DNA of 64,000 bases. Source: Escherichia coli. Lineage in GTDB: Bacteria; Pseudomonadota; Gammaproteobacteria; Enterobacterales; Enterobacteriaceae. The first letter of the stretch is position 1. Every line of letters starts with the position of its first letter. The notes beneath the pieces are model-generated. The model did not search any database. It was not told the DNA's origin and saw only the letters and a list, made by a program, of their open reading frames with translations. The stretch lies in assembly GCF_003790525.1 (NCBI RefSeq), contig NZ_CP033635.1; one strand, given 5' to 3'. Made by a program: the position numbers and the translations under genes. This document shows, in pieces, positions 7,417 through 55,434 of this stretch.

Positions 7417-8368
7417 ACCATTCCTTATGTTTCAGAGGGTTAGCCATGGCACCCAAAATATCAGAAATCACGTTAACAATAATGACCAGTGAGCCACACA
7501 CCATCACTCCGGCGGAAATGGCTGCGTAATCCTGCTGGCGGATAGCGTTAATTAACCAGCGCCCTAAACCCGGCCAGCTAAAGACCATTTCGGTGATCAT
7601 CGCCAGCGTCAGCATGGTAGAAAACTGTAAGCCCAGGCGAGGAATAACCGGAGGTAACGCGTTATGCAGAACGTGGCGACGCAAAATAGTAAAGCGCGAC
7701 AAACCGCGGGTCGCCGCTGCTTTAACATAGTTCTGGTCATACACTTCGATAGTGCTGATACGCATTAGTCGGATCACTTCAGTTGTTGGCGCAACCGACA
7801 GGGTGATCACGGGTAATATCATATGGCGAATTGCGCTCATGACCATTTCATCCCGCCACGGTGAGTCCGAAAGCCAGGCATCAATCAACGCAAAACCGGT
7901 AATCGGTTTCACTTCGTAGAGCAAATCGAAACGCCCAGAAACGGGCAACCAACCTAGCGTGAGTGAACAAAACAGCGTCAGCAGAAGCGCCAGCCAGAAC
8001 ACCGGGATTGAAAAGCCCAGTAAGGCGATGGCGTTGATCAAGTTATCCTGCCACTTATGGCGCGTAATCCCGGCAATCATTCCCATGGGGATGCCAACAA
8101 TCAGCGCAAAACCAAAGGCGAGGATGCACAGCTCCATCGTCGCCGGGAAGACCTCTTTTAACTGTTCGGCAATCGGTTGACCGTTAATGCTGGAAACACC
8201 AAAATCCCAGTGGATCAGGCCGTTAAACCAGAACACCCAGGCATTCCACAGTGACGCGCCTTGTAACGGCGCATGTGGGGTGAAATAGCTCAAGCTGAAG
8301 CCAACGAAGGTCAGCAGGAACAAGGTGACAATCAATAACAAAATACGGCGTAAGGTGAAGATAATCAT
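7403..8368 (-). CDS. sapB: ABC transporter permease SapB
   Basis: 321-aa membrane ORF, DppB/OppB-like; 4-nt overlap with sapA stop. Confidence 0.9.
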
Positions 8369-10008
8369 GGCTTTTTCACCTCATCCTGTTTCTCGCGATA
8401 CACCCCAGCAAAGGAGGCGTTACCAAACGGGCTAAGTACCAGACCTTTGATATCGTACCGATAGGCCTGCAAACGCAATGACGACGCCAGCGGCAGAATA
8501 GGTAATTCCTGCGCCAGAATACTTTGCGCTTCGTCATAGGCTTCAATACGCGCCGCCAGCTGCTGCGAAGAGAGCGCCTTACGCAATACGCTGTCGAATT
8601 TCGGATCGCACCAGTGGGCGAGGTTGGTCTGTGAATGAATTGCCGCGCAGCTCAGTAACGGACGGAAGAAACTGTCCGGGTCGTTACTGTCCGTCGCCCA
8701 ACCGGATAACGTCAGATCATGGCTCATATCCATCAACCGCGCCTCCTGAAAACGACCTTCTACCGGCACAATCACCACTTTTACGCCAACCTGTGCCATA
8801 TCCGCCTGAATCAGTTCGGCGGTTTTCAGTGGACTGGGGTTCCACGCCTGCGAACGTGTGGGCACCCACAGTTTCAGCGTTAAGTTTTCCAGCCCCAACG
8901 CCTTCAACTGTTCGCGCGATTTTGCCGGATTGTATTCAGTAATTTTAGCCTCGTTGTCATAGGCCCACGAGGCGCGCGGTAAAATAGAGGCCGCCGTTTC
9001 AGCCGTACCATAATAGATGGATTGCATCAGGCGCTGGTTATTAATCGCCAGTGCCAGTGCATGGCGGACCGCCGGATTATTTAGCGGCGGTTTAGCGGTG
9101 TTAAACGCCAGATAGGCGACGTTCATCCCCGGGCGCAGCGTTAAACGCAAGCGCGGGTCGTCACGCAAAATGGATAGCTGACTGGCGGCAGGCCAGGCCA
9201 GAACGTCGCATTCCCCGGTCAGGAGTTTCGACAGACGTCCGGTGCCGCCGGAGCCTAAATCCACCACCACCTGCGGCATTAACGGCTTACCACGCCAGAA
9301 GTCATCATGACGTTGTAAGCGAATATATTGCCCGGCGCGGTATTCCGACAACTGATACGGACCGGTGCCGACCGGTTGACGGTCGAGTTGCTCCTGGCGA
9401 TCTTCTTTCTCTAACTTCCCTGCATATTCTGCCGACATGACCGAAGCATAATGGGTCGCGAGGTGCCACAAAAAAGAAGCATCCGGCTGAGCCAGACGGA
9501 ACTCAACGGTATGATTATCCAGTTTACGGACGCTTTTCACGTTATCGGCAAATTGCAGGCTGTCGAAATAGGGGAAGTTGCTGCCATTAACGTTATGCCA
9601 CGGGTTGTTGCGGTCAAAAATTCGCTGGAAGGTAAACACCACATCGTCGGCATTCATTTTACGAGTGGGAGTAAACCAGTCGGTTTTTTGAAACGGAACA
9701 TCGCGACGCAGGTGGAAGCGATAGGTCGCGCCGTTGTCGAGTACTTCCCAGCTTTCGGCAAGTTCCGGCATCAGGCGATAGGTATAGGGATCGACATCCA
9801 GCAGTCGATCATAAAACTGGGCGGCAAGGGTATCGACAATTAACCCACTGCTCGCTTTGGATGGGTTAAAGGTGTTGACTTGCCCGCTGACGCAATAGAC
9901 AAAACCGCTGTCGCGGATATCAGCATGCGGGGGGGATTCAGGCGCGGCGATTGCCTGACCACTCACAAGTCCAGCAATCACCAAAAGAGACGATAATACC
10001 TGGCGCAT
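8365..10008 (-). CDS. sapA: Periplasmic substrate-binding protein SapA
   Basis: 547-aa ORF with signal peptide ([13 protein letters not shown]), family-5 solute-binding fold; first gene of sap operon. Confidence 0.9.
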
Positions 10009-10112
10009 AATATTAAGGGATTTTATGTAAAGAGGCTATCTTACTAATATTTAATGACATTTGCCATTACCGTTTGTGTTCAGGGGTCGTAATGAGGGCC
10101 GTGTGGTTGGTC

Positions 10113-10143
10113 GTTGAACAGGTGGCGTCGCCATCTGTTCAAC
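10113..10143. other. 15-bp-arm hairpin in ymjA-sapA intergenic region
   Basis: GTTGAACAGGTGGCG / CGCCATCTGTTCAAC, one mismatch, 1-nt loop. Confidence 0.5.
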
Positions 10144-10257
10144 ATTCGTACCCGTGATTTCTCTATAACTATAACTCACAGAACAACTTAGCGAGGAGCA
10201 GAGCGGTACGATCGTGAGAAACCCATTGAGGCACACTGCAGTGCGTGTCATTGTTAG

Positions 10258-10285
10258 CCGGATGCGGCGTGAACGCTTTATCCGG
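10258..10285. repeat. REP-like palindromic element
   Basis: CCGGATGCGGCGTGAACGCTTTATCCGG resembles the E. coli REP consensus. Confidence 0.55.
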
Positions 10286-10320
10286 ACAACGATACTGACC
10301 GATCGTCTGCAATGAAATAA

Positions 10321-10566
10321 TTACTCATTACCCCATTGATTCAAAAACTCTGCGATCTCATCAATGCGTACGGGATTAATCCCCGCTTCAGCAGCCATTT
10401 CATGTTGGGCTTCTTCGCTGATTTCTTCATTGTTCATCAAACGGGTGAGCAGTAACTGGAAGTAGAGGGCCAGCGGTGTGCGTTCAGCGTCGGCGACAGG
10501 CTCTGCGCATTCGGTCGCGTACTCATCGGCAATATCGAAATATTTTAGCGGGATATCGTGGTTCAT
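10321..10566 (-). CDS. ymjA: Small acidic protein YmjA
   Basis: 81-aa ORF between sapA and puuP as in E. coli; recognised as YmjA. Confidence 0.75.
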
Positions 10567-10651
10567 TATTTGCCCCTGGGGTTAATGCGCTAAGCATAAG
10601 GGCGGATGATAGCACTCGTGATCCGGGTCATACATCTTTTTATAGTTAATG

Positions 10652-10690
10652 GCGCGGCGCATTACCCTCAGGCAGGATAATGCGCCGCGC
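10652..10690 (-). terminator. GC-rich hairpin 3' of puuP (terminator or REP-like)
   Basis: 13-bp arms GCGCGGCGCATTA / TAATGCGCCGCGC immediately after the puuP stop; A/T-rich tail but no clean U-run. Confidence 0.4.
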
Positions 10691-10699
10691 ATCCGACAA

Positions 10700-12085
10700 T
10701 TACGTTTCGCTCACCGGCGTTCTGTCACCATCATACAACGGCACTTTGCGATAGCGGCGGATCAGATACCACAAATATGCGCCGCCTAATGAAGCCCATA
10801 CCAGACCGAGTGTCAGTGACGTTGACTCGAGGTTAACCCACAGCACACCCACCGTCAGCGCGCCAACCAGCGGCATCAGCAAATAGTGGAAGTGATCCTT
10901 CCAGCTTTTATTCATTCCTTTGCGCCGCCAGAAATGATTAAACACCGACAGATTCACGAAGGTAAACGCCACCAGAGCACCGAAGTTAATCAATGCTGTC
11001 GCGGTGACTAAATCAAAGAACAGCGCCGACAGCGCAACAATCCCGACCATAATGACGTTCAACGCTGGCGTGCGCCATTTCGGGTGCACATAGCCAAACA
11101 CGCGCTCCGGAAACACATTGTCACGCCCCATCACATACAGCAGACGCGACACGCTGGCGTGCGACGCCAGGCCAGACGCTAACGTGTTCACAAACGTGGT
11201 ACAGAGGAAAATCGACTGGAAGAGCTTGCCGCCGACGTACAGCGCAATTTCAGGCAGTGCGGCGTCCGGGTCTTTAAAGCGGCTGATATCAGGAAAGAAC
11301 AGCTGCATAAAGAACGACGCAGCGATAAAGATAACGCCACCGTAGACCGCCGTCAGGAAGATGGCTTTCGGGATCACGCGTGCGGCGTCCGGCGTCTCTT
11401 CCGAAAGCGTGGTCACCGCATCGAAACCGAGGAAGGAGAAACAGACAATCGTCGCCCCGGTAATAATCGGGATCAGGTGCGCGTTCTCGCTGATAAACGG
11501 CTGAAGTGACCAGACGGTGCCAACGCCTTCTCCTTTATGCAGTCCCTGAACCACCAGGAAGATAAACACCACCATGATGGAGATTTGCACCAACACAAAC
11601 AGGGTATTGAAGTTAGCAACCAGGTTGACGCTCTTCAGATTCGCGGCGGTTAAAATGGCGACGAAGGTTACTACCCACACCCACGGCGGCACTTCCGGGA
11701 AGAGGGCGGAGAGATAGATTTTCGCCAACAAGACGTTGATCATCGGCAAAAAGAGATAATCCAGCAGCGATGACCAGCCGACCATAAATCCGACGTGCGG
11801 GTTAATCGACTTTTGCGCGTAGGTATAGGCCGAACCGGCTTCCGGAAACTGGCGAACCAGTTTGCCGTAGCTGATAGCGGTAAACAGCACGCCCGCCAGC
11901 GCCAGCAAATAGGACGCCGGAACGTGACCGTCGCTAATGCCGGAGACAATACCAAAAGTATCAAATACGGTCATCGGCGTGAGATAGGCCAGACCCATCA
12001 TCACCACCTGCCACAATTTCAGTGATTTTCGCAGACGGGTTTTGCCAGATTGCGCAGCAATAGTCAGTGGTGAATTAATAGCCAT
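10700..12085 (-). CDS. puuP: Putrescine importer PuuP (APC family)
   Basis: Polytopic membrane ORF; start set at MAINSPL (461 aa) with GGAGG upstream; recognised as PuuP. Confidence 0.88.
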
Positions 12086-12387
12086 AGTTGCTGCCTCCCC
12101 TGCGTAATAAGGTTTGCGGTCGTGTCGACCTGAAATCAAACCTGTTTAGCAAGGGAAGCAAAGGGGGCGGAGTCCAGTCAGTCGCAGGAGGGGCGCATAC
12201 GCAGCCTCCCTCGCCATGCGGGGATTTAATCATCGGCATCATCTCATTTCCTCGTCACAGTCTTAATCGTTAACGGAAGCCCGTTGCCGCCTGCGCTCCA
12301 TAACGCGACATCCGGGAAATGTCTGGATTACCAGCAAATGTCAGGCCTGGCTCCGCTCAGGCCGATGAAACAACCCCGCAAGGGGTA

Positions 12388-13849: not shown

Positions 13850-13864
13850 AAAATATAATGACCA
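13850..13864. promoter_or_regulatory. Putative PuuR operator in divergent puuA-puuD region
   Basis: AAAATATAATGACCA is one mismatch from the PuuR 15-bp box as I recall it (AAAATATAATGAACA); a related AAAAAATATTGAACA lies at 13945-13960. Confidence 0.4.
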
Positions 13865-14017
13865 CTATTCGAATCTGTATGCAAACTAAATGTTTGTCAA
13901 ATGTTAAATTGAGTTTGCAAAAATGAAAAACCACTGCTAGATTGAAAAAATATTGAACATAAAGGTCATTTAAAGCGCAGTAATGGCGATAATTTAGTCC
14001 ACTTTGTGAGATTGAGC

Positions 14018-14782
14018 ATGGAAAATATAATGAACAATCCGGTTATCGGTGTCGTAATGTGCAGGAACAGGCTTAAGGGTCATGCGACCCAGACTCTGCA
14101 AGAAAAGTACCTGAATGCCATCATCCACGCAGGCGGTTTGCCAATAGCGCTACCACATGCGCTGGCGGAACCGTCGTTACTTGAACAACTTTTGCCGAAA
14201 CTCGATGGTATTTATCTTCCTGGTAGTCCCAGCAATGTGCAGCCGCACCTATATGGTGAAAACGGCGATGAGCCTGACGCCGATCCCGGGCGTGATCTTC
14301 TGAGCATGGCGTTAATTAATGCCGCACTCGAAAGGCGCATCCCCATTTTCGCCATCTGCCGGGGTTTACAGGAACTGGTGGTGGCAACCGGTGGTTCGTT
14401 GCATCGCAAGCTGTGCGAACAGCCTGAATTGCTGGAACATCGGGAAGATCCCGAACTGCCGGTGGAGCAGCAATATGCACCGTCGCATGAAGTTCAGGTT
14501 GAAGAGGGGGGATTGCTGTCTGCGTTGTTACCTGAATGTAGCAACTTTTGGGTAAACTCTCTGCATGGACAAGGGGCGAAGGTCGTTAGCCCACGGTTGC
14601 GTGTTGAAGCTCGCTCGCCGGATGGCTTAGTTGAGGCGGTTAGCGTCATCAATCATCCTTTTGCGCTGGGCGTACAGTGGCACCCGGAGTGGAACAGTAG
14701 CGAGTACGCGCTTTCGCGTATATTGTTCGAGGGCTTTATCACCGCTTGTCAGCACCATATCGCTGAAAAACAGCGACTCTGA
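14018..14782 (+). CDS. puuD: Gamma-glutamyl-GABA hydrolase PuuD
   Basis: Class-I glutamine amidotransferase-like ORF; start set at MENIMNNPV (254 aa). Confidence 0.88.
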   Translation: MENIMNNPVIGVVMCRNRLKGHATQTLQEKYLNAIIHAGGLPIALPHALAEPSLLEQLLPKLDGIYLPGSPSNVQPHLYGENGDEPDADPGRDLLSMALINAALERRIPIFAICRGLQELVVATGGSLHRKLCEQPELLEHREDPELPVEQQYAPSHEVQVEEGGLLSALLPECSNFWVNSLHGQGAKVVSPRLRVEARSPDGLVEAVSVINHPFALGVQWHPEWNSSEYALSRILFEGFITACQHHIAEKQRL

Positions 14783-39432: not shown

Positions 39433-40974
39433 ATGCGTCTGGAAGTCTTTTGTGAAGACCGACTCGGTCTGACCCGCGAATTACTCGATCTACTCGTGCT
39501 AAGAGGCATTGATTTACGCGGTATTGAGATTGATCCCATTGGGCGAATCTACCTCAATTTTGCTGAACTGGAGTTTGAGAGTTTCAGCAGTCTGATGGCC
39601 GAAATACGCCGTATTGCAGGTGTTACCGATGTGCGTACTGTCCCGTGGATGCCTTCCGAACGTGAGCATCTGGCGTTGAGCGCGTTACTGGAGGCGTTGC
39701 CTGAACCTGTGCTCTCTGTCGATATGAAAAGCAAAGTGGATATGGCGAACCCGGCGAGCTGTCAGCTTTTTGGGCAAAAATTGGATCGCCTGCGCAACCA
39801 TACCGCCGCGCAATTGATTAACGGCTTTAATTTTTTACGCTGGCTGGAAAGCGAACCGCAAGATTCGCATAACGAGCATGTCGTTATTAATGGGCAGAAT
39901 TTCCTGATGGAGATTACGCCTGTTTATCTTCAGGATGAAAATGATCAACACGTCCTGACCGGTGCGGTGGTGATGTTGCGATCAACGATTCGTATGGGCC
40001 GTCAGTTGCAAAATGTCGCTGCCCAGGACGTCAGCGCCTTCAGTCAAATTGTCGCTGTCAGCCCGAAAATGAAGCATGTTGTCGAACAGGCGCAGAAACT
40101 GGCGATGCTAAGCGCGCCACTGCTGATTACGGGTGATACCGGCACCGGAAAAGATCTCTTTGCCTACGCCTGTCATCAGGCAAGCCCCAGAGCGAGCAAA
40201 CCTTACCTGGCGCTGAACTGTGCGTCTATACCGGAAGATGCGGTCGAGAGTGAACTGTTTGGTCATGCTCCGGAAGGGAAGAAAGGGTTCTTTGAGCAGG
40301 CGAACGGTGGTTCGGTGCTGTTGGATGAAATAGGGGAAATGTCACCACGGATGCAGGCGAAATTACTGCGTTTCCTTAATGATGGCACCTTCCGTCGGGT
40401 TGGCGAAGACCATGAGGTGCATGTCGATGTGCGGGTGATTTGTGCTACGCAGAAGAATCTGGTCGAACTGGTGCAAAAAGGCGTGTTCCGTGAAGATCTC
40501 TATTATCGTCTGAACGTGTTGACGCTCAATCTGCCGCCGCTACGTGACTGTCCGCAGGACATCATGCCGTTAACCGAGCTGTTCGTCGCCCGCTTTGCCG
40601 ACGAGCAGGGCGTGCCGCGTCCGAAACTGGCCGCTGATCTGAATACTGTACTTACGCGTTATGCGTGGCCGGGAAATGTGCGGCAGTTAAAGAACGCTAT
40701 CTATCGTGCACTGACACAACTGGACGGTTATGAGCTGCGTCCACAGGATATTTTGTTGCCGGATTATGACGCCGCAACGGTAGCCGTGGGCGAAGATGCG
40801 ATGGAAGGTTCGCTGGACGAAATCACCAGCCGTTTTGAACGCTCGGTATTAACCCAGCTTTATCGCAATTATCCCAGCACGCGCAAACTGGCAAAACGTC
40901 TCGGCGTTTCACATACCGCGATTGCCAATAAGTTGCGGGAATATGGTCTGAGTCAGAAGAAGAACGAAGAGTAA
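39433..40974 (+). CDS. tyrR: Aromatic amino-acid regulator TyrR
   Basis: Start set at MRLEVFCEDR (513 aa); ACT/PAS N-terminus, AAA+ central domain (GDTGTGKD), C-terminal HTH. Confidence 0.93.
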   Translation: MRLEVFCEDRLGLTRELLDLLVLRGIDLRGIEIDPIGRIYLNFAELEFESFSSLMAEIRRIAGVTDVRTVPWMPSEREHLALSALLEALPEPVLSVDMKSKVDMANPASCQLFGQKLDRLRNHTAAQLINGFNFLRWLESEPQDSHNEHVVINGQNFLMEITPVYLQDENDQHVLTGAVVMLRSTIRMGRQLQNVAAQDVSAFSQIVAVSPKMKHVVEQAQKLAMLSAPLLITGDTGTGKDLFAYACHQASPRASKPYLALNCASIPEDAVESELFGHAPEGKKGFFEQANGGSVLLDEIGEMSPRMQAKLLRFLNDGTFRRVGEDHEVHVDVRVICATQKNLVELVQKGVFREDLYYRLNVLTLNLPPLRDCPQDIMPLTELFVARFADEQGVPRPKLAADLNTVLTRYAWPGNVRQLKNAIYRALTQLDGYELRPQDILLPDYDAATVAVGEDAMEGSLDEITSRFERSVLTQLYRNYPSTRKLAKRLGVSHTAIANKLREYGLSQKKNEE

Positions 40975-40979
40975 GCGTG

Positions 40980-41014
40980 AATATGCCTGATGGTGCAACA
41001 CCATCAGGCATATT
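40980..41014. terminator. Hairpin between convergent tyrR and tpx
   Basis: Perfect 16-bp inverted repeat AATATGCCTGATGGTG-caa-CACCATCAGGCATATT. Confidence 0.6.
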
Positions 41015-41017
41015 AAC

Positions 41018-41524
41018 TTATGCTTTCAGTACAGCCAGAGCTGCTTCGTAATCCGGCTCGGTGGTGATTTCATCCACCAGCTGGCTGAAAATCACATTGT
41101 CATTTTCATCAATAACCACAACGGCACGCGCTGCCAGACCTTTCAGTGGGCCATCAGCAATTGCCACACCGTAGGCTTGCAGGAATTCAGCGTTACGGAA
41201 AGTGGAGAGGGTGATAACGTTGTTCAGACCTTCTGCGCCGCAGAAACGAGACTGGGCGAACGGCAGATCGGCAGAGATACACAGCACAACGGTGTTGTCG
41301 ATCTCGGTTGCCAGTTGGTTAAACTTACGTACTGATGCGGCGCAAACACCGGTATCAATACTCGGGAAAATGTTCAGCACTTTGCGTTTACCCGCAAACT
41401 GACCGAGGGTGACGTCAGACAGATCTTTTGCCACGAGAGTAAAAGTCTGCGCTTTGCTACCCGCCTGCGGGATGGAATTGGCGACTGTAACCGGGTTGCC
41501 CTGGAAATGAACGGTTTGTGACAT
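41018..41524 (-). CDS. tpx: Thiol peroxidase Tpx
   Basis: 168-aa atypical 2-Cys peroxiredoxin ORF. Confidence 0.93.
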
Positions 41525-53988: not shown

Positions 53989-55434
53989 TTATTTTAAAGG
54001 TGACGGTGTCACGTTTTTCGGGATAGGGCAGTGATACGGTTGCGTGTCCGTAACTTGCTGATGCTCTTGTTGGCATTCTTGCAATAGCCCTGAATCAATG
54101 AAGAGATTAAGTGTGGTTGCTGCCATAGTTTTCGCCGCCAGCAGCATTCCTTTATGAGCAATAGATGTTCGCCCCTGGCTAACCAGTTGCCACGTATGTA
54201 GCGGGGTACCGACGGCAAAGCAGGGGCTGAAACACTGGGCAACAGGCAGTTTCCAACTGACGTCGCCGACATCAGTCGATGCCGCAAGCACGTTATCGGT
54301 GGCGGCATATGGAGCGACTTCATTCGCCAGTACCGTTTCACGATGACGTAGTGCAAAAGCCTTGCCGTTTTCGCCACCGGTTGCAGCGATATTATTCAGA
54401 CTGTTTTGCCGATCGTTGGGGGTGAGCGTAGCCTGAATTTGTTTCGCAAAAGCCAGTTCTTCGCAGTTCCATTCCGGGGTACCAAAATGGGATAGGGCTC
54501 GGTACATGGCATTTTCTAAGGTGCGATTCGGGAGATAACTGGAACAGGCTTTGTCGAAGCGGCATTCAACCGTGGTTTCGGTCATCAATGCCGCACCTTC
54601 GGCGATTTTGGCGACCCGATCATAAATATGCTGCACATCGGTCATTTCGGGGGCGCGGATAAGATAAAGCACTTCTGCCTGCGCCTGGACCACGTTGGGC
54701 GAGATCCCGCCGCTATCTGTGATGGCATAGTGTACGCGCGCTTTTTCAATAATATGTTCGTTGAGGAAGTTGGTGCCAGTGGTCATCAACGTTACGGCAT
54801 CAAGGGCGCTGCGTCCCAAATGAGGGGAATTCGCGGCATGTGCTGCGATCCCTTTAAAGCGCCATGATGCCTGAATGTTTGCCAGCGTGCGGGTATTGAA
54901 CATACCGGCAAAGGCTTCCGGGTGCCAGGTGAGTGCCGCATCCACATCATCAAATACCCCCTCGCGGACCATGAACGTTTTACCCGAGCCGCCTTCTTCG
55001 CCAGGACAACCATAAAAGCGCACCGTGCCGCCTTGCCCATATTGTTCCAGCCATTTCTTGACGGCTATTGCAGCGGCAAAGGCGGCGGTTCCCAGCAAAT
55101 TGTGTCCGCAACCGTGACCATTTTCACCGGGCGTCGCGGATGTAGGTTGCGCGCAACTTGCTTGCTGACTTAAACCTGCCAGGGCGTCATATTCCCCCAG
55201 CAGGGCGATAACCGGTTTGCCTTGACCAAACGAAGCAATAAAGGCATTTGGGATATTGCCTACGTTGCGGGTAACGGTGAAGCCTGCAGACTCCAGCGCC
55301 GAAGCCAGATGCTCCGCTGACCAGAACTCTTCAAAACGTGTTTCTGGATGATCCCAGATTTGATCGGCAATATCGGTATAACGTTGGCGATCGGCTTCAA
55401 TCGCATCGTCGATAAAACGATAGATTTCCTGCAT
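53989..55434 (-). CDS. abgB: p-Aminobenzoyl-glutamate hydrolase subunit B (M20)
   Basis: 481-aa M20-family ORF. Confidence 0.88.
   Translation of the reverse strand: MQEIYRFIDDAIEADRQRYTDIADQIWDHPETRFEEFWSAEHLASALESAGFTVTRNVGNIPNAFIASFGQGKPVIALLGEYDALAGLSQQASCAQPTSATPGENGHGCGHNLLGTAAFAAAIAVKKWLEQYGQGGTVRFYGCPGEEGGSGKTFMVREGVFDDVDAALTWHPEAFAGMFNTRTLANIQASWRFKGIAAHAANSPHLGRSALDAVTLMTTGTNFLNEHIIEKARVHYAITDSGGISPNVVQAQAEVLYLIRAPEMTDVQHIYDRVAKIAEGAALMTETTVECRFDKACSSYLPNRTLENAMYRALSHFGTPEWNCEELAFAKQIQATLTPNDRQNSLNNIAATGGENGKAFALRHRETVLANEVAPYAATDNVLAASTDVGDVSWKLPVAQCFSPCFAVGTPLHTWQLVSQGRTSIAHKGMLLAAKTMAATTLNLFIDSGLLQECQQEHQQVTDTQPYHCPIPKNVTPSPLK

Follow-up and report, generated by a model that had tools for sequence, protein, structure and literature searches.

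Introduction

Hairpin-forming palindromes are known from several kinds of transcribed intergenic DNA. In intrinsic terminators, of which the hairpin between tyrR and tpx is a likely example, a short loop caps a long and stable stem that contains G+C, in intergenic DNA downstream of a gene. REP/BIME palindromes are extragenic and transcribed, and stem-loops of the ompA hp1 type in 5' untranslated regions are stable hairpins near the 5' end of a long leader; protective 5' hairpins must sit within a few nucleotides of the 5' end. Template-switch quasi-palindromes of Escherichia coli are imperfect inverted repeats with single-step alleles, one of them perfect, in which one arm looks like a copy and the repeat has a higher density of variable sites than its flanks. 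Here we report a previously undescribed hairpin between ymjA and sapA of E. coli, which has these traits in common with the respective systems and departs from each of them in others.

The window that we analyzed is a stretch of 64,000 nucleotides of E. coli, with 100% identity to strain 2016C-3878 across 451 bases. The genes around the hairpin are all on the minus strand: sapA (8365-10008), ymjA for a DUF2543 protein (10321-10566) and puuP (10700-12139). SapBCDF is annotated as a putrescine exporter, and its genes adjoin the puu genes. Literature mentions of ymjA were limited to strain markers or table rows, and a literature search for sapA together with ChIP-exo found nothing relevant. Positions 54000-54012 match the matS consensus (GTGACGGTGTCAC) perfectly, consistent with a position of the window in the Ter macrodomain. 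The preliminary description of this DNA had suggested that the hairpin could terminate ymjA or could be a regulatory leader structure or an operator for sap.

Results

A near-perfect palindrome in the ymjA-sapA spacer

An inverted-repeat search of the window found two arms of 15 nt each at 10113-10127 (GTTGAACAGGTGGCG) and 10129-10143 (CGCCATCTGTTCAAC), which are complementary at 14 of 15 positions (93%) with 1 nt between them. Together they make a 31-nt near-perfect palindrome (10113-10143, minus strand, centre at 10128), which corresponds to 1357215-1357245 of K-12. The sapA-sense strand reads GTTGAACAGATGGCG-A-CGCCACCTGTTCAAC and folds as RNA into 14 pairs with a 3-nt loop. At the one position where the arms fail to match, the plus strand has G/T and the minus, sapA-sense, strand has A/C. 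Folded as RNA, the plus-strand hairpin has an energy of -22.7 kcal/mol (z -5.3) and the minus-strand hairpin one of -18.6 kcal/mol (z -5.1), and none of the shuffled sequences was as stable in either case. The repeat search confirms the geometry given in the preliminary description (15-bp arms, one mismatch, a 1-nt loop), and the gene coordinates agree with the position given there, which is downstream of ymjA and 105-135 nt before the sapA ATG.

Three inverted repeats in the window have 15-nt arms with at most one mismatch and a loop of 0-8 nt (10113-10143, 10653-10689 and 40979-41015), while first-order Markov simulations gave 0.013 such repeats per window; therefore, the palindrome at 10113-10143 is not a product of chance matching. 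The repeat at 10653-10689 is a second long hairpin (15-nt arms, one mismatch, a loop of 5-7 nt), GC-rich and free of a T-run, between the puuP stop (10700) and the ymjA promoter, whose start is at about 10597. The third, extended to 40977-41017, has 19-nt arms that are 95% complementary around a 3-nt loop. It fills the 43 nt that separate the convergent genes tyrR (ending at 40974) and tpx (ending at 41018), and it looks like a shared two-way terminator.

The ymjA-sapA spacer is 312 nt long in both K-12 and the window, with seven substitutions, one of which is within the hairpin. Directly after ymjA, the repeat search found a REP-type palindromic element (10250-10293, no strand assigned) with a weak naRNA4/REP-like Rfam match under the gathering score; the only Rfam matches near the hairpin, weak and REP/naRNA4-like, are at 10230-10308. 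This element is separate from the hairpin and is given as context only. A further imperfect palindrome at 10224-10253 (CATTGAGGCACACTGCAGTGCGTGTCATTG, 75-78% complementary) abuts it downstream of ymjA. On the other side of the hairpin, directly 3' of it in the sense RNA, we found a tract that is rich in C and poor in G (10070-10112, minus strand), with 18 C and 5 G in the 40 nt of the sense strand from 10110 to 10071; in composition, this tract resembles a Rho loading site. The sapA leader also contains a CA-rich stretch, GAACACAAACGG (10070-10080, minus strand), which is conserved in most of the Citrobacter loci compared. We take this stretch to resemble the CA-rich motif targeted by the sRNA GcvB, a regulator of other genes for peptide-binding proteins. 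A literature search found no paper linking sapA with GcvB.

Transcript starts and promoters around the hairpin

To place published transcript ends, K-12 coordinates were moved to the window by offset, the spacers being equal in length and differing by substitutions only. The ymjA start agrees in the two maps used after a version offset of 1,976 nt, which validates the transfer. The first map places a sapA start at 1355282 of K-12 v2, that is, at 10156 with a 148-nt leader, with a value of 2 in what appears to be the read-count column and an upstream sequence ending in ...GTTATAGTTATAGAGAAATC (Kim 2012; PMC3415461, supplement). In the second, made by SMRT-Cappable-seq, a sapA operon starts at 1357263, that is, at 10161, 153 nt upstream of the ATG (Yan 2018; PMC6131387, Supplementary Data 2). 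The same data set has a second sapA operon start at 1357133 (10031), and it has ymjA only inside the operons ymjA-sapA and ymjA-sapA-sapB, with starts at 1357699 and 1357701 (Yan 2018; PMC6131387); the former corresponds to about 10597 in the window (minus strand).

These data indicate two sapA promoters on the minus strand. The distal promoter, P2, has its starts at 10156-10161 and a -10 hexamer TATAGT at 10168-10173 (-12 to -7 of the start at 10161), which is invariant across all Escherichia compared; a -35 element is not recognisable. Both data sets give the distal start thin support, with a value of 2 in the first (Kim 2012) and a single operon line in the second (Yan 2018). The proximal promoter, P1, starts at 10031 with a 23-nt leader and has a -10 hexamer TAAGAT at 10038-10043 (-12 to -7), within a block that is conserved in Citrobacter, and Salmonella arizonae has TACGAT there. 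A consensus scan of 9900-10700 called neither a promoter, P2 included, nor a terminator. We also considered the constitutive promoter ATGACA-15-TTTAAT at 10249-10222 on the minus strand (Shimada 2014), which is upstream of both mapped starts; no start is mapped there and it was rejected. In this strain it reads ATGACA-15-CTCAAT, as against TTTAAT in K-12.

The distal start is 13-18 nt upstream of the hairpin, which therefore occupies +19 to +49 from the start at 10161, or +14 to +44 from that at 10156, and about 97 bp separate its centre from the proximal start downstream. The hairpin is also contained in ymjA read-through RNA that extends into sapA and sapB. Thus, the suggestion of a sap leader structure held with regard to location, which two independent maps of distal starts support, but found no support with regard to regulation; the stem is polymorphic, and no covariation was seen. 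The 153-nt leader as a whole shows no unusual degree of structure (z -1.1), and sapA has no obvious Shine-Dalgarno sequence.

A role of the kind played by the ompA stem-loop was rejected, the stem being preceded by 13 nt (Kim 2012) or 18 nt (Yan 2018); unlike the ompA hp1 type, the sapA hairpin begins 13-18 nt from the 5' end. A small RNA like RyhB was rejected as well: Erwinia amylovora has an annotated ryhB copy between pspF and sapA (PMC4070566), but the E. coli spacer gave no RyhB match.

No intrinsic terminator in existing data

The preliminary description had offered termination of ymjA as one role of the hairpin. Its stem-loop is stable and contains G+C, as that of an intrinsic terminator does, with the energies given above for each strand. 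Unlike intrinsic terminators, it has no U/T run 3' of the stem on either strand (the stem is followed by CGACCAACCACACGG on the sense strand and by ATTCGTACCCGTG on the plus strand), it has no mapped 3' end, read-through is documented, and it lies between two co-directional genes, just after a promoter. A terminator scan found no terminator-like site between ymjA and sapA. The Term-seq tables of Adams 2021, which cover curated 3' ends, regions of Rho termination and ends mapped within leaders and ORFs, have no curated 3' end for sapA, ymjA or coordinates 13571xx-13574xx, in three laboratory conditions in which low expression could mask 3' ends. Supplementary file 2 of the same study has no Rho termination region for these genes or coordinates either. 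As a positive control for this search, coordinates were found to be plain integers and the neighbouring puuA entry was recovered. Similarly, no TTS is present at 13571xx-13574xx in Data 1 of Yan 2018 (PMC6131387). Since ymjA transcripts read through the hairpin, RNA polymerase passes it. The hairpin is no intrinsic terminator in existing data, and the proposed role in ending ymjA transcripts finds no backing in the T-run, the terminator calls, the Term-seq 3' ends or the Rho regions. Partial termination may occur, given that the long-read library was selected for cDNA longer than 1 kb, so that RNAs of ymjA alone would be missed.

A related possibility is a 3'-end element that serves ymjA as well as short transcripts from P2, where Rho would act on the C-rich tract and exonucleases would trim back to the stem, giving partial termination or insulation before P1. 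The strong hairpin directly before the C-rich tract, the lack of a canonical terminator anywhere between ymjA and sapA and the size selection of the long-read library speak for it. We regard it as quite unlikely, in view of the Adams 2021 tables, the ymjA-sapA and ymjA-sapA-sapB transcripts, the missing U-tract and the REP element that is already present directly after ymjA.

Comparison with known elements

Rfam gave no match over 10113-10143 at E<=10. REP/BIME was rejected because the hairpin is single-copy, has no REP consensus and has no REP-like Rfam match, with a real REP element about 110 bp away. The hairpin occupies about one place per genome (median one), and the extra places in some genomes are presumably the palindrome matching its own opposite strand. 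A repeated or mobile element or an att site was also rejected, on account of this copy number, the lack of a phage match and the presence of the region in 5,421 of 5,426 E. coli genomes; matches labelled as plasmid are to records of up to 4.9 Mb, which we read as mislabelled chromosomes.

For DNA-binding proteins, the hairpin centre was not among the matches to matS (GTGACRNYGTCAC, 13 bp) with at most two mismatches. By eye the K-12 allele reaches 11 of 13 matS positions, which is chance level, as seven matches with at most two mismatches are expected per window. The AAAATATAATGAACA-type motif, which we take to be the PuuR operator consensus and which is said to go back to Nemoto in 2012, was absent near 10113-10143 at up to three mismatches. 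The window has seven matches to this motif as against about two expected, and the three in the puuA-puuD divergent spacer (13850-13864, 13945-13959 and 14022-14036) have 0-2 mismatches and accord with a PuuR operator. A paper on a PuuR biosensor does not state the motif.

A dimeric protein might still bind the 31-bp palindrome as a DNA operator, at about +34 of P2 and -97 of P1, and might block P2 and read-through or assist P1. The dyad is perfect or near-perfect, with 15+1+15 symmetry in strain Xuzhou21 and 733 other genomes, it is placed between two promoters, and the folds show no clear strand preference as RNA. Against this, one arm varies freely, four alleles with 12-15 matching positions are common, the sequence fits neither the PuuR motif nor matS, no similar dyad was found elsewhere in the window, and the hairpin sequence itself gave no match in the library of papers searched. 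In addition, usual operators are shorter than 31 bp. An operator for sap, as the preliminary description had also proposed, thus appears quite improbable.

Variation within E. coli

Allele counts were obtained from exact 61-mers in the 5,421 genomes with the region, 5,105 of which carry one of four alleles. The allele of the window (14/15 pairs) is present in 1,652 genomes and the K-12-type allele (10125 G>A; 13/15 pairs) in 1,674. A perfect palindrome (10122 G>A; 15/15 pairs), found in the O157:H7 strain Xuzhou21, accounts for 734 genomes, and the B2/ST131-type allele (10113 G>A and 10136 T>A; 12/15 pairs) for 1,045. Over these common alleles, the energy of the sense-strand hairpin ranges from -23.3 to -12.0 kcal/mol. 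The C>T change of K-12 and the terminal C>T change of B2 strains both give G.U pairs on the sapA-sense RNA.

Among eight E. coli strains, 8 of 31 hairpin sites were variable as against 26 of 281 in the remaining spacer, and the former number falls to 4 of 31 once one odd genome is omitted. The stem is no more constrained than the flanking spacer. In E. coli N96, four clustered substitutions (AA>TT and CG>TT) are present in one arm, at positions equivalent to 10117-10118 and 10126-10127 of the window; they stem from a multi-base mutational event or else from an error in the assembly.

A translated upstream ORF that overlaps the palindrome and controls sapA was also considered. The frame has 21 codons (MLNRWRRHLFNDQPHGPHYDP; 10080-10145, minus strand, ATG at 10145-10143, stop at about 10080) and is open and equal in length in E. 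albertii, E. marmotae, E. ruysiae and E. whittamii as well as in most E. coli. However, codon 4 is a stop codon in the B2 allele (1,045 genomes) and in one of the related loci (L002), and the candidate was rejected for this premature stop. Most substitutions alter the amino acid, a clear ribosome-binding site is lacking, K-12 has no annotated gene here, and frames and lengths differ in Citrobacter. It is hard to give this ORF any credence as a regulator of sapA.

Comparison with relatives and origin of the arms

In the loci compared, ymjA adjoins sapA only in Escherichia. In Citrobacter, Salmonella, Klebsiella and others, ymjA is absent from the 900 nt upstream of sapA. In the E. marmotae locus (1-1446), pspF is directly upstream of ymjA, with no intervening puu cluster. 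About 75 nt before the sapA ATG, P1 included, are near-identical in Escherichia and Citrobacter, and weaker similarity extends to about 260 nt. The hairpin is present only in Escherichia, with none in the Citrobacter loci compared. E. marmotae has the same allele as the window (14/15 pairs), E. ruysiae and L002 have 12/15, E. albertii and a further locus (L004) 11/15, and E. whittamii about 9/15.

An alignment of 11 sequences of close relatives showed compensatory changes in none of the 14 pairs, 8 pairs varied solely by pairing loss and three showed G.U, and shuffled alignments scored equally well or better on covariation; the Escherichia sequences are about 90% identical overall, which gives tests of conservation and covariation low power.

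These results bear on a possible active role of the hairpin RNA in the sap leader, be it as a site of processing by RNase III or another enzyme, a protein-binding hairpin or a polyamine-sensitive structure that would tune the putrescine exporter operon. The hairpin is located in the distal leader and in the read-through RNA, the two common substitutions retain G.U pairing on the sense strand, and such a role would go along with the lack of an obvious Shine-Dalgarno sequence in sapA and with the annotated function of SapBCDF beside the puu genes. On the other hand, covariation is lacking, the stability of common alleles spans -23 to -12 kcal/mol, the remaining leader is not unusually structured and the main conserved promoter P1 bypasses the hairpin wholly. 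Moreover, typical RNase III substrates have about two helical turns of double-stranded RNA, and the stem of 14-15 bp is shorter than this; with 13-18 unpaired nucleotides at the 5' end, the ompA type does not fit either. Taken together, an active RNA element is a doubtful candidate.

The two arms differ in their history. The arm proximal to P2 (10143-10129) hardly varies and can be aligned with Citrobacter, where it is shared in part. The other arm (10127-10113) holds most substitutions and has no counterpart in Citrobacter, where the alignment over this arm is poor. Because the P2-proximal arm is conserved while the other carries most changes, the pattern suggests that the second arm arose in the Escherichia lineage as an inverted copy of the first. 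Unlike in the template-switch case, changes of the sapA hairpin away from complementarity are as common as those toward it, and the direction of change needs more outgroups. Complementarity of at least 11/15 is found as far out as E. albertii, with one lineage at 15/15. A 14/15 palindrome so far from chance, together with this persistent pairing, could reflect selection for pairing.

Discussion

We consider the hairpin to be an ordinary, Escherichia-specific leader stem-loop with little or no selected function, and give this reading a probability of roughly 55%. The palindrome lies in a transcribed spacer between a weak distal promoter, P2, and a conserved proximal one, P1. In RNA from P2 and in ymjA read-through RNA, a stable stem-loop folds at about +19 to +49, and RNA polymerase passes it. 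The strength of the stem drifts among lineages without compensation, and because of this uncompensated drift, its effect on sapABCDF expression is probably small. At most, the stem-loop may locally impede decay or processing of the leader RNA. The position, the fold, the lack of terminator features, the transcript starts, the read-through and the polymorphism are observed; that function is probably weak or absent, and that one arm probably arose by inverted duplication, is our interpretation.

A more far-reaching scheme would join the stem-loop and the C-rich tract into an Escherichia-specific riboregulator that gates transcription from ymjA and P2 into sapABCDF, perhaps by sensing polyamines or a protein, with the four alleles of 12-15 pairs setting lineage-specific expression. 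We hold this scheme to be very unlikely.

The importance of the ordinary leader stem-loop is low, and the main gain is a refined map of the ymjA-sapA spacer, which is now mapped with two sapA promoters, ymjA read-through and a stem-loop that does not terminate in existing data. The locus is also a small case for the origin and decay of palindromes in bacterial intergenic DNA. Finally, if the hairpin does tune sapABCDF, the natural allelic series, from the perfect stem of an O157:H7 strain through K-12 to the weakened stem of ST131-type strains, would be a ready-made experiment on putrescine export.
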